64,000 nucleotides of DNA, taken from assembly GCA_024653775.1 (NCBI GenBank), contig JANLHZ010000268.1, forward strand, positions 3,555-67,554, in the 5' to 3' direction. This DNA is from Planctomycetota bacterium. Lineage in GTDB: Bacteria > Planctomycetota > UBA8742 > JACQVU01 > JANLHZ01. Numbering within the stretch: the stretch's first letter is position 1; each line of letters starts with the position of its first letter. The notes under the pieces are model-generated. The model saw nothing but the letters and a program-made list of their open reading frames with translations. It had not been told where the DNA came from and made no database searches. The position numbers were made by a program, and so were the translations under genes. Shown one piece after another: positions 33,839-36,633 of this stretch.

Positions 33839-33974
33839 TTCACTTCTTCGGGCGCTCGGCGAGGAGTTTATCGACTACGCTCGGGTCCGCGAGGGTTGTC
33901 GAATCGCCTATGTCGGACTCCCCGGCCGCAATGCGCTTCAGAATGCGGCGCATGATCTTGCCGGAGCGGGTTTT
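33839..33974 (-). pseudogene. 136-bp duplicated copy of acs 3' end (about 5 mismatches vs 34609-34744)
   Basis: Direct comparison. Would encode ...[30 protein letters not shown] then a stop, with no upstream gene body. Confidence 0.85.
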
Positions 33975-34198
33975 CAAGCATTTAGCGCCTGATAAACCTG
34001 TCCGCGCTCTTTAAGCCAATCGACGTCATCGGCTTTCGCGCGATCCTCAACTTCCTTCAGGAACTTCACTGTTTCAGGTTCGAAACAGGCTTCAGACGGA
34101 TCGAAATCCGGAATGATGGCGTCGACTTCCAGAATAACCACGTATTTATCGGTGCGTACAATTCTTCGGCGTCTGACTTTTTTTCCGGGAATTTTCAT
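33974..34198 (-). CDS. small protein, putative antitoxin-like partner of DUF4258 gene
   Basis: 74 aa. 4-nt ATGA overlap with the upstream gene. Stop codon coincides exactly with the repeat junction. Confidence 0.5.
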
Positions 34199-34488
34199 TC
34201 AGAATCCTCGTCGAAATAATGAACAGTGACCAGCTTAACAAGCTCCAGTGAACGAATGTAAGACCAGACTGCCATAAAACTTGTACCATCCGGGAGAACT
34301 TCAAGAACTTCCACCGCTGGGTTCGGGTTGTCTCGTTTCCGTTCTTTTATGAGCTTGCCCATTTCAAGTCCTGTCACAACCTGCCATTCAAGTATATCAC
34401 GCTCCTCGAGTCTTGCCGCAGCATGTTCGCCGACAATGTATTGGTCGTCAGCGACGAGTTCCTTGATAGTTTCGAAAAGTCTGCCCAT
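34195..34488 (-). CDS. DUF4258-like toxin-family protein
   Basis: LVADDQYIVGEHAAARLEERDILEWQVV resembles the DUF4258 signature (HA..rl.eR.I). The ORF-track N-terminal extension to 34584 reads through a decayed acs-repeat copy and is probably not translated. Confidence 0.6.
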   Translation of the reverse strand: MGRLFETIKELVADDQYIVGEHAAARLEERDILEWQVVTGLEMGKLIKERKRDNPNPAVEVLEVLPDGTSFMAVWSYIRSLELVKLVTVHYFDEDSE

Positions 34489-34608
34489 GCCATCTTCACT
34501 TCTTCGGACGCTCCTCGAGGAGTTTATCTCTGGCGTTCGGGGCCGCCAAAAGTGCCACGCGCATCTTGCGCGTGGATAACCCACGGCCGTGACGTCCGTG
34601 CCACAGTA

Positions 34609-36633
34609 TTACTTCTTCGGGCGCTCGGCGAGGAGTTTATCGACGACGCTCGGGTCCGCGAGGGTCGTCGCGTCGCCTATGTCGGACTCCCCGGCCGCAA
34701 TGCGCTTCAGAATGCGGCGCATGATCTTGCCGGAGCGGGTTTTAGGTAGCGCGTCGGTGAACTGGATGACGTCGGGCCGCGCGATCTTGCCGATCTGCTT
34801 CACGACCTCATCGAAGAGTTCCTTGCGGACGGCGTCGTTACCCTCGACCCCGGCGTTCAGCGTCACGAACGCGTAGAGCGCCTGGCCCTTGATCTCGTGG
34901 GGCATCGGCACCACCGCGGCTTCCGCGACTTTCGGATGCGCGACGAGTGCGCTTTCGACCTCCGCGGTCCCGATGCGGTGGCCGGAAATGTTGATGACGT
35001 CGTCGACTCTACCCATGATCCAGAAGTAGCCGTCTTCGTCCTTGCGGGCGCCGTCGCCGGTGAAGTAAATCCCAGGAAAACGGCTCCAGTACGTATCGAC
35101 GAAGCGCTGGTGATCGCCATAGACGGTGCGCATCATCCCGGGCCAGGGTTTATCGATGACGAGGAGTCCGCCTTCGTTCGGCTTCGCCTCGGTGCCGTCC
35201 TCGCGAAGGATGCGCGGGAACACTCCCGGAAGCGGGCGCGTCGCGCTGCCGGGCTTAGTCGTGATCGCCCCCGGCAGCGGGCTGATGAGGATGCCGCCGG
35301 TTTCGGTCTGCCACCAGGTATCGACGATAGGGCAGCGCTCCTTACCGATAACGCGATGATACCACATCCACGCCTCGGGGTTGATCGGTTCGCCCACGGT
35401 TCCGAGAAGGCGCAGACTCGAAAGGTCGCGCCCATTCGGCCAGTCGTCGCCTGAGCGCATAATCGCGCGGATCGCGGTTGGCGCGGTGTAGAAAATGTTG
35501 ACGCGGTGCTTCTCGACGATCTGCCAGAAGCGATCGGGCTGCGGATAGTTCGGGACGCCTTCGAACATCAAGCTCGTCGCGCCGTTCGCGAGGGGACCGT
35601 AGACGATGTAGCTGTGCCCCGTGACCCAGCCTATGTCCGCGGTACACCAGTAGGTGTCGTCGTCGCGGAGGTCGAAGACGTATTTCGTCGTGAATGTGAC
35701 GTACGTGAGGTATCCCGCGGTGGTGTGGACGACGCCCTTGGGCTTACCCGTTGTTCCCGAAGTGTAGAGGATGAAGAGCGGGTCTTCCGCGTCCATCTCC
35801 TCGGGTTCGCAACTTCCCTGCACATCAGGGTCGTCGACGAGATCGTAGTAGCTGAGGTCGCGGCCTTCGGTCCATCCGACGTTCGCGCCGGTTTTTTTGA
35901 CGACGATGACGTTCTGAATCGACGGCGTGTTTGAACATGCCTCGTCCGCGGCAACCTTGAGGGGGATCGGCTTCCCCGCGCGGACGCCCTCGTCGGCGGT
36001 GATCAGTATCTTGCAGGAGCTGTCATTGATGCGATCGCGCAGGCTCTCGGCGCTGAATCCTCCGAAGACGACGCTATGTACCGCGCCAATGCGCGTGCTT
36101 GCGAGGCACGCGATTGCAAGCTCCGGGATCATCGGCATATAGAGGCAGATGCGATCTCCTTTTTTTACGCCGAGCTTGCGAAGCGCGTTCCCGAGCTTAC
36201 TGACCTCGCGGTGGAGTTCTGCGTATGTGTATGCGCGCTCTGCGCAGTCCTGCTCACCTTGCCAGATTATCGCGGCTTTGTTCTTCCGCCAGGTGGTGAG
36301 GTGGCGGTCGAGGCAGTTGACGCTGACGTTCAGTTTCGCGCCTTCGAACCACTTGCAGCGAATCGCTTTGCTATCGAAGGAGTAGACCTTGTCCCACTTT
36401 TTGCTGAAGGTAACGAGCTTTTCAGCCTGCTCCGCCCAGAATCCTTCTTCGTCAGATTTCGACCCGGCGTAAAGAGCCTCGTAATCGCTGGCGCTCTTCA
36501 CATGAGCTTTGGAGGAGAACTCCGCGGACGGCGGAAACCTGCGGTTTTCCTGACTCAGACTCTCGATGGAAATTCCTTCCGCCATTCTCGACCCCCATAG
36601 GTGATTTTTGATTTTCGAAACACGGTTCGCCAT
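34609..36633 (-). CDS. acs: acetyl-CoA synthetase (acetate--CoA ligase)
   Basis: [23 protein letters not shown]-binding motif. C-terminal ...[18 protein letters not shown]. Full-length Acs architecture. Start could be the internal Met at MAEGISIE. Confidence 0.9.

Follow-up and report, generated by a model that had tools for sequence, protein, structure and literature searches.

Extra copies of an acs 3′ end in a Planctomycetota genome as probable footprints of small, integrase-free cassette insertions

Why should the end of a gene recur, several times over, in the DNA beside the gene itself? The question is raised by acs, the gene for acetate-CoA ligase (acetyl-CoA synthetase), in a stretch of 64,000 nucleotides (nt) from a Planctomycetota bacterium (contig JANLHZ010000268.1, assembly GCA_024653775.1, positions 3,555 to 67,554), hereafter the window. 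Directly behind acs a small cassette, encoding a DUF4258 toxin-like protein and a partner, stands among additional copies of the acs 3′ end. A preliminary description of the locus counted three copies in all and took the acs terminus for a recurrent attachment site. The three copies are real, but the count was too low, as the window holds five (A to E). We favour, though with considerable reserve, the reading that the extra acs ends are footprints of repeated insertions of small self-stabilising cassettes behind acs, made without an integrase and likely by homologous recombination with an imported gene end.

The acs gene (34609..36633, minus strand) is an intact open reading frame (ORF) of 674 amino acids (aa) with the Pfam domains ACAS_N, AMP-binding and AMP-binding_C. 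Its product is identical to P0001, an NCBI entry from a metagenome-assembled Planctomycetota genome. The nearest other acs in a search of 5.8 billion proteins is 72% identical and its best match in the genome collection 66% identical, and exact look-ups of acs and the toxin gave no match. Read along acs, and all on the minus strand, the order is copy B, a spacer, copy C, the DUF4258 gene, the partner gene, copy A and then the native flank, which runs to a convergent secretin gene. Copy B (34609..34743) is the resident, true end of acs, consisting of the last 44 codons and the TAA stop. Copy A (33840..33974) is an orphan of 44 codons with a TGA stop that aligns to copy B without gaps over 133 nt at 97% identity; three of the four mismatches are synonymous and one is non-synonymous, and the stop codons differ in addition. 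These two copies are of class I. When the acs end was compared by blastn with the whole window, copy A was recovered at E = 1e-63 and no unrelated match was better than 0.03, so that its resemblance to the acs end is far beyond chance. Copy C (34496..34557) represents the decayed last ~57 nt of acs with a TGA stop, ends in a class II tail ('...ARDKLLEERPKK*') and is 81% identical to copy A over 53 nt (nhmmer E = 1.3e-12; tblastn E = 0.004). The alignments therefore uphold the arrangement originally described, with two full copies and one decayed copy around the DUF4258 pair. Copies B and C are parted by a 51-nt spacer (34558..34608) with a perfect 9-bp GC-rich hairpin, whose arms CCACGCGCA and TGCGCGTGG enclose aga at ~34555-34575 and are followed by CACTTTTG. 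The spacer folds with a minimum free energy of -35.4 kcal/mol (z = -3.4); a simple terminator scan made no call on the hairpin because its T-run comprises only 4 T.

Between copies C and A lies the cassette. The DUF4258 gene (34195..34488, minus strand, 97 aa) matches PF14076 above the gathering score (36 bits against a cut-off of 25, E = 9e-9) and has 716 homologues at ~65% identity, found in named metagenome-assembled genomes (MAGs) of Planctomycetota, Acidobacteria and Gemmatimonadetes and on many metagenome contigs. Its ATG lies 7 nt past the stop of copy C. Since all 36 of the 36 homologues aligned begin with MG[RK]LF, the true coding sequence is 34195-34488, and the longer, 129-aa ORF is, as had been suspected from the outset, read-through of copy C in another frame. 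The 74-aa partner (33974..34198, minus strand), a presumed antitoxin, has an ATG that overlaps the toxin stop (ATGA, 34195-34198) and gave no match to Pfam or PADLOC, and a homologue of it stands beside the toxin in 78 of 83 related loci. The DUF4258 family has been placed in the BECR/RelE-ParE toxin superfamily, its activity being listed as unknown (PMC11980606). Judged by sequence and conservation, the two genes are a bona fide, widespread two-gene module of toxin-antitoxin type, in which the roles of toxin and antitoxin are putative. The module ends flush with the repeat, as previously noted: the TGA stop of the partner (33976-33974) overlaps the first base of copy A, and no microhomology was seen by eye at this junction. 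Copy A in turn forms an ORF whose TTG start overlaps the preceding TGA of the cassette (GCTTGAAAA; TTGA, 33974-33977).

The remaining two copies lie 10 kb away on the plus strand. Copy D (approximately 45005..45190) is an orphan acs end of ~180 nt with a 58-aa ORF and a class II tail. It forms an inverted repeat with copy B of 163 nt at 85% identity (blastn, 85% over 139 nt; tblastn E = 1e-27) and follows immediately on the stop codon of a transglutaminase-like gene, no acs body lying ahead of it. Copy E (45860..45920), again of class II, is the decayed last ~57 nt of acs with a TAA stop ('...ARDKLIDERPKK*'; nhmmer E = 3.5e-13) and is a direct repeat of the end of D over 47 nt at 79% identity. 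On the strand opposite to acs, copies D and E thus bracket a second cassette (45248..45845, GC 0.475), which comprises a 69-aa ORF (45248-45457) and a 149-aa nucleotidyltransferase gene (45396-45845) with weak matches to DUF2204/DUF6036. The simplest reading is that this cassette was inserted with a duplication of ~60 nt of a D-type end. Moreover, four substitutions (GCCAGAGAYAAACTC, 'ARDKL', against GTCGTCGATAAACTC) are common to copies C, D and E, whereas copies A and B and all 120 full-length acs homologues inspected carry the 'VVD.L' type. Therefore C, D and E belong to one another's lineage and are not independent decays of B, which is evidence that the orphan acs-end sequence has itself been propagated. 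A donor lineage with a functional acs ending in '...ARDKLL...' was found neither among the 120 best full-length homologues nor among the 120 best matches to the peptide of copy D. As to the position of D and E, either a second acs disappeared except for its last ~180 nt, or a single array was divided by one inversion of ~33.8-45.0 kb; reversing that inversion would merge both arrays into one of five copies, and no inverted repeats were found at the breakpoints it requires. No recent exchange between B and D is visible, as D is uniformly ~85% identical to B and shows no mosaic block.

This architecture is not confined to acs. Scanning the window for direct repeats revealed that a radical-SAM/glycosyltransferase (GT2) gene (18704-21112, minus strand) has been hit at both ends. 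Its 3′ end is duplicated as a repeat of 104 nt at 99% identity (16912-17015 and 18708-18811) on either side of a HipA_2 kinase and DUF3037 pair (17087-18703, GC 0.477), a match to PDC-M66 (PADLOC PDC-M66A/B), which is a candidate defence system. Here the insert sits 13 nt inside the radical-SAM frame and supplies a new stop, so that the product ends in ...TNGK and not in ...TNGNGAH. At the other end, a repeat of 145 nt at 94% identity (20979-21123 and 21937-22081), made up of the first 134 nt of the gene and 11 nt upstream, flanks a DUF433 and DUF5615/PIN-like pair (21332-21952, GC 0.491); the insert parts the gene from its former upstream neighbour and leaves an orphan 46-aa N-terminal ORF at 21930-22070. 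The phenomenon is therefore general in this genome and not tied to acs. The inserts of the window measure 0.6-1.7 kb, and its four cassettes, with a GC content of 0.475-0.49 against 0.605 for acs and the radical-SAM gene, are compositionally foreign. A Pfam scan of every ORF of at least 200 aa in the 64 kb, together with the small cassette genes, found no integrase, transposase or phage protein, and the window holds no tRNA gene. One further repeat (117 nt at 52331/52770, 74%) was rejected as an insertion footprint: it corresponds to the 5′ parts of two tandem paralogues of the glyoxalase/bleomycin-resistance family (138 and 130 aa, 52329-53172), an ordinary gene duplication.

Is the acs end used in this way elsewhere? 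We surveyed 80 acs loci on contigs taken at one genome per species. A downstream orphan of the gene's own last 150 nt followed 2 of 63 acs genes and none of 530 other genes of at least 200 aa (P = 0.011); on these small numbers acs seems to be favoured for such copies. In a deltaproteobacterium (L043) the two acs ends are 73% identical and enclose an 81-aa DUF4325 gene, whose stop abuts the repeat, with a ParE/ribbon-helix-helix pair after it. At that locus the DUF4325 gene and the acs orphan are in the same frame, parted by a single TAG, and the AT-rich DUF4325 leader just behind acs contains three direct, operator-like copies of GTTTACATAAA (12026-12090). In a Microcoleus (L073) a repeat of 158 nt at 97% identity accompanies a ribbon-helix-helix gene, and the TTG start of the orphan acs ORF overlaps the preceding cassette TGA (TTGA, 6326-6329), as in the window. 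A member of the Oscillatoriales (L067) carries a rearranged form of this insert, whilst another acs locus (L058), with an acs 90% identical, has no insert and is a likely empty site. The site is therefore polymorphic in that cyanobacterial group. Another cyanobacterium (L179, 2626-4437) has an orphan of 168 nt at 97% identity beyond an insert with SIS-domain and orotidine-monophosphate (OMP)-decarboxylase-family genes, possibly a hexulose-phosphate pair and thus a metabolic cargo, not an addiction module. In a further bacterium (L177) a repeat of 224 nt at 96% identity goes with a HEAT-repeat gene, and in an Asgard archaeon, represented by two assemblies (L175 and L176), a repeat of 294 nt at 81% identity flanks an insert of 3 kb. 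The resident acs of L175 is called as three consecutive genes (315, 95 and 230 aa; 1154-3197) and may be frameshifted or interrupted, and its insert holds a 497-aa protein with a faint LAGLIDADG match. Three other assemblies share a layout in which an orphan acs C-terminal ORF follows a histone-fold gene and a 134-aa ORF (L180, 4592-4843; L181; L182), with no acs in the 4.5 kb upstream of the orphan.

Across these loci the acs inserts span 0.3-3 kb, and no integrase or transposase was found in those of L043, L073, L175 and L177 (scanned with Pfam) or of L179 (precomputed Pfam). The limits of the orphans vary: the 5′ limits lie 133, ~135, 158, ~180, 217 and 258 nt before the stop, and the 3′ limits range from the stop codon to 36 nt beyond it. 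Every full-length orphan examined (A, D, L043, L073, L175 and L177) includes a conserved 16-residue stretch, the most conserved DNA of the region, and copies A and L043, which are independent, both start exactly there. Short acs C-terminal ORFs also dominated the list when proteins were searched with the copy D peptide. The protein database contains hundreds of entries of 45-100 aa that consist of the acs C-terminus only (P0242-P0360), many of the Asgard ones being exactly 71 aa long with the same Met start. Some short acs C-terminal proteins carry unrelated N-terminal residues (P0261, P0279, P0306, P0309 and P0340), and another (P0349) joins the acs N-terminus directly to the C-terminus, resembling an internal deletion. 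A short acs C-terminal ORF on a 110-kb contig (L178) was dismissed as an orphan because it proved to be a frameshift in acs.

Viral sequences were searched for an acs-end mimic. When viral contigs were scanned for the acs C-terminus as a protein pattern, no match was obtained. A degenerate pattern returned 11 viral contigs, of which 7 had acs at the contig edge and 3 a tyrosine integrase just downstream; the DNA between acs and the integrase holds a tRNA-Ser gene, so that these cases are integrations into a tRNA gene and were rejected as evidence for an acs site. In Burkholderiales-like proviruses from IMG/VR the tRNA-Ser gene stands at 590-680 (L166) and 985-1075 (L169), and the provirus boundary calls extend into acs, which could mislead towards acs as an att site. 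A full-text search of the literature returned no account of genomic islands that integrate at acs.

The cassette family, too, can be followed to other host genes. We fetched 83 loci with relatives of the DUF4258 pair and compared their flanks, which were long enough in 65. Direct repeats of 63-430 nt with at least 79% identity flank the pair in 6 of these 65 loci, compared with 7 of 582 control positions, where mock cassettes were set at 1.5-kb intervals along control loci of 22 kb (Fisher P = 8e-4). The repeats duplicate the 3′ end and terminator of glnA (430 nt, L083), the 3′ end of a DUF2201 metallopeptidase gene (155 nt, L089), of an aminotransferase gene (122 nt, L130) and of an unannotated ORF (127 nt, L157), or lie in intergenic stretches (L162 and L163). 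The cassettes are oriented either way and the distance from repeat to gene varies, which argues against a precise element with defined ends.

Finally, we asked how the resident and orphan acs ends differ. Synonymous and non-synonymous differences number 3:1 between B and A, 13:2 between B and D (first 40 codons), 3:1 in L073, 24:15 in L043, 8:1 in L177 and 33:11 in L175. Pooled over the six pairs this amounts to 84:31, or 27% non-synonymous, where a proportion of at least ~0.60 is expected had the orphan simply drifted (binomial P = 5e-13). Given this excess of synonymous differences, the two copies of a pair have the appearance of alleles that each have a past as functional acs genes. It is most economical to suppose that one of the alleles would have been imported from another lineage together with the insert.

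Three other features of the window deserve mention. Adjoining copy E is a low-GC stretch of defence-type genes (46145..49806, plus strand), which comprises an AbiJ-like gene (PDC-S32), an unknown gene of 415 aa and, as a pair of AbiL/AriA type, an AAA_15/21 ATPase and its partner of 160 aa. At 6863-8759 an AAA_21/AAA_15 ATPase gene (410 aa) is followed by one for a DUF4276 protein; the two resemble a defence-type module, and no long flanking repeat surrounds them at seed 12. An AT-rich pair of inverted repeats (TAATTAATAATTAACAATTAATAATT and similar, 33-42 nt, ~150 nt apart) lies at 37601-37834 between metallophosphoesterase and glycosyltransferase genes, where the GC content dips to 0.475.

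We propose the following course of events. A cassette would have come in attached to a homologous acs end of another lineage, and host homologous recombination would have joined it to the chromosome, either by a Campbell-type single crossover of a circularised fragment or by an equivalent unequal exchange, with the conserved 16-residue stretch of acs serving as the homology anchor. Such an insertion would leave the incoming DNA between two direct copies of the host gene end, and its product would read gene, hybrid copy, cassette, hybrid copy, native flank. Copy A would be the end displaced downstream, beside the native flank, and copies C, D and E would be older footprints of the same process, D and E bracketing the second cassette. 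That the orphans include the most conserved stretch fits its use as an anchor, and this would account for insertions at a very conserved gene end in so many phyla. Toxin-antitoxin addiction would then guard the insert against loss by recombination between the flanking repeats; selection of this kind would explain the bias of the cargo. Several observations weigh against this proposal. No empty site is available for the lineage of the window, where insertion is deduced from composition and from comparison with other taxa, and homologous recombination is inefficient at the 73-85% identity of L043, L175 or B and D. The proposal also leaves unaccounted for the class II remnant C between the class I copies B and A, as well as copies D and E, which are inverted, 10 kb off and without an acs body. 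Moreover, the cargo is not always an addiction module, as the HEAT-repeat gene of L177 and the SIS-domain and OMP-decarboxylase-like genes of L179 illustrate. Translation of the orphan fragments, with selection acting on them, could be behind the synonymous excess instead, and the orphan ORFs in the window and in L073 do begin at a TTG overlapping the preceding stop. Lastly, ordinary recombination may at a later time have exchanged the resident acs allele, with a similar pattern of substitutions as the possible outcome.

The proposal has to be set against the idea of an attachment site. What stands of that idea is that insertions have recurred at this point, to judge by the five copies with at least two cassettes in the window, the same layout in L043, L073, L067, L177, L179 and L175/L176, and the enrichment of 2/63 against 0/530. 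An integrase target, in contrast, is unsupported by the scanned ORFs and inserts, by the variable repeat lengths, by the viral integrases seated at tRNA-Ser and by the other genes that are hit. Nevertheless, the copies might be attL/attR-type scars of phages, integrative and conjugative elements (ICEs), integrative and mobilisable elements (IMEs) or tycheposon-like elements that carried a mimic of the acs end, piled up in tandem, lost their integrase modules and left addictive cargo behind, like a cis-mobilisable element (CIME) that can be moved in trans. Foreign DNA enclosed by direct repeats of a gene 3′ end is the textbook mark of such elements, and acs is enriched over its neighbours for copies of this kind; all full-length orphans include the conserved stretch, at which A and L043 start exactly; the derived substitutions shared by C, D and E are expected of an element-borne site; and a synonymous-dominated divergence fits a gene end carried from a former host. 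We nevertheless hold this account to be unlikely, because no integrase was found in window ORFs of at least 200 aa or in the scanned inserts, the acs inserts are merely 0.3-3 kb, the repeats take in anything from 133 to 258 nt of acs, the viral-contig scans yielded no phage mimic of the acs end and only three acs-adjacent integrases that sit behind tRNA-Ser, and the structure recurs at unrelated genes, a gene 5′ end among them, both with this cassette family and within this window.

Copying of the acs end on the spot would derive both copies from the acs of this genome. A staggered double-strand break at the acs end would have undergone fill-in, end joining or template switching would have linked it to captured foreign DNA, and the orphan would then have drifted. 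This is the model implied in the restriction-modification literature, and the near-identity of the young pairs (104 nt at 99%, 133 nt at 97% and L179 at 97%) agrees with it, as does the insert 13 nt inside the radical-SAM frame with its new stop, which is what a random break would give; the variable distances from repeat to cassette among the family members argue, here too, against a precise element. The older pairs, however, differ mostly at synonymous positions (B-D 13:2, L175 33:11, L177 8:1 and L043 24:15), contrary to drift on the pooled test, and a DUF4258 toxin with an RNase fold is not expected to cut DNA as restriction enzymes do, so that we consider in-situ duplication somewhat less probable again. 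Selection on the fragments themselves offers a different explanation of the few non-synonymous differences between orphan and resident: the orphan C-termini might be kept as expressed small proteins, for instance as decoys bearing the lysine motif of the active and acetylation site, with the link to cassettes secondary. The TTG starts overlapping a preceding TGA in the window and in L073 would suit expression, as would the hundreds of short acs C-terminal ORFs in the protein database, many of them 71-aa Asgard entries with the same Met. Yet copies C and E are cut to ~19 codons and lack the lysine motif, the L175 orphan has an in-frame stop near its 5′ end, the start positions of the orphans are not conserved, and among the short database ORFs many come from genes broken off at contig ends or, as in L178, from a frameshift; this explanation therefore appears very improbable. 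A mis-join of strain variants at the shared acs end is scarcely credible. The window does come from a MAG, and the copies differ by few single-nucleotide polymorphisms, as strain variants would, but the junction of partner stop and copy A holds no shared sequence that could mislead an assembler, and the same architecture recurs in independent assemblies (L083 on a contig of 7.66 Mb, and L175 and L176 from two assemblies).

A wider and more tentative proposal can be made, which we regard as possible rather than probable. Addiction and defence cassettes may spread between Planctomycetes, cyanobacteria and Asgard archaea without a recombinase of their own, riding on a conserved gene end, with acs as a preferred landing pad, the host performing the single-crossover insertion and the flanking repeats permitting the loop-out of a circle able to repeat the cycle. 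If true, this would be a homology-guided mobile element whose sole 'mobility gene' is a piece of a host gene. Four such events in 64 kb carry toxin-antitoxin or defence cargo instead of nucleases, which argues that the mechanism belongs to the host or to the homology of the incoming DNA and not to a DNA-cutting cargo. The recurrent use of acs and the allele-like copies give a concrete, testable model, namely Campbell-type import anchored in a conserved gene end, and orphan gene-end fragments annotated as 'hypothetical proteins' or 'partial acetyl-CoA synthetase' could mark integrase-free islands.

How does the locus compare with known systems? Tyrosine-integrase elements such as ICEs, IMEs and tycheposons target the 3′ ends of genes or tRNAs, accrete in tandem and leave att scars or CIMEs. 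The acs locus is similar in that arrays of partial gene 3′ ends separate small blocks of foreign cargo, the host gene stays intact and addictive cargo is kept. It differs in that the scanned ORFs of the window and the scanned inserts of the parallel cases yielded no integrase, that neither the core nor the repeat length is fixed, and that the structure also occurs at a gene 5′ end and in intergenic DNA. Campbell-type single-crossover integration, familiar from laboratory insertion-duplication, places an insert between two hybrid homologous copies, uses host recombination only and is reversible by loop-out. It yields exactly the product seen at acs; the difference is that here the circular intermediate is hypothetical, and to our knowledge such integration has not been documented as a natural route by which toxin-antitoxin cassettes spread between species. 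Integron cassettes are likewise small, promoter-poor, often toxin-antitoxin pairs and arranged in one orientation behind a fixed point, but in the present case there is no IntI, attI or attC, and the separators are acs fragments instead of imperfect palindromes of the attC kind. A ParE/ParD-like module of Microcystis aeruginosa PCC 7806 is 'fenced' by two identical 152-bp direct repeats behind an orthocaspase gene, an arrangement for which no explanation was offered (PMC7935541). It too is a toxin-antitoxin pair right downstream of a host gene, with long direct repeats and no mobility gene reported, although its repeats start 14 bp past the host stop and contain an inverted repeat and so are not copies of a coding end.

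The closest parallel is insertion with long target duplication, described for restriction-modification systems (Nobusato et al. 2000, Gene 259:99), surveyed by Furuta, Abe & Kobayashi 2010 (PMC2853133) and reviewed in PMC3874152. The direct repeats measure 46-423 bp, consist of target DNA and in many cases take in the 3′ end of a flanking gene; they are not accompanied by mobility genes and occur in many phyla, including Microcystis; the mechanism is unknown and has tentatively been tied to DNA breakage by the cargo, and the restriction-modification inserts have been proposed to pass through a cycle in which they insert, amplify by way of the repeats and are released (PMC2853133, PMC3874152). 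In both cases a compact addiction-type unit stands between direct repeats of host DNA, tens to hundreds of base pairs long and of varying length, with no integrase or transposase; the repeats often overlap the 3′ end of a neighbouring gene, and many phyla, cyanobacteria among them, are involved. The window holds direct repeats of more than 30 bp of host sequence (133 nt at 97%, 47-60 nt at 79%, 104 nt at 99% and 145 nt at 94%) around inserts of less than 20 kb that contain no integrase, transposase or phage genes, and a candidate for an empty-site comparison exists in the cyanobacterial parallel only (L058 against L073/L067). The cargo, however, is different. In the window it consists of the DUF4258 pair, HipA_2/DUF3037, DUF433/DUF5615 and the nucleotidyltransferase, with no complete restriction-modification system, and since these are not restriction enzymes the idea of DNA breakage does not transfer. 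Also different are that one gene end, that of acs, is hit repeatedly and across domains of life, and that the repeat copies look like different functional alleles instead of one duplicated target. Taken together, the locus is a further example of integrase-free insertions of a kind that is already known but poorly understood, to which it adds new cargo and a strikingly high local density. Relative to a limited literature search, what is new here is that the acs end is hit repeatedly, in several bacterial phyla as well as in Asgard archaea, and that the repeat copies look like different functional alleles.

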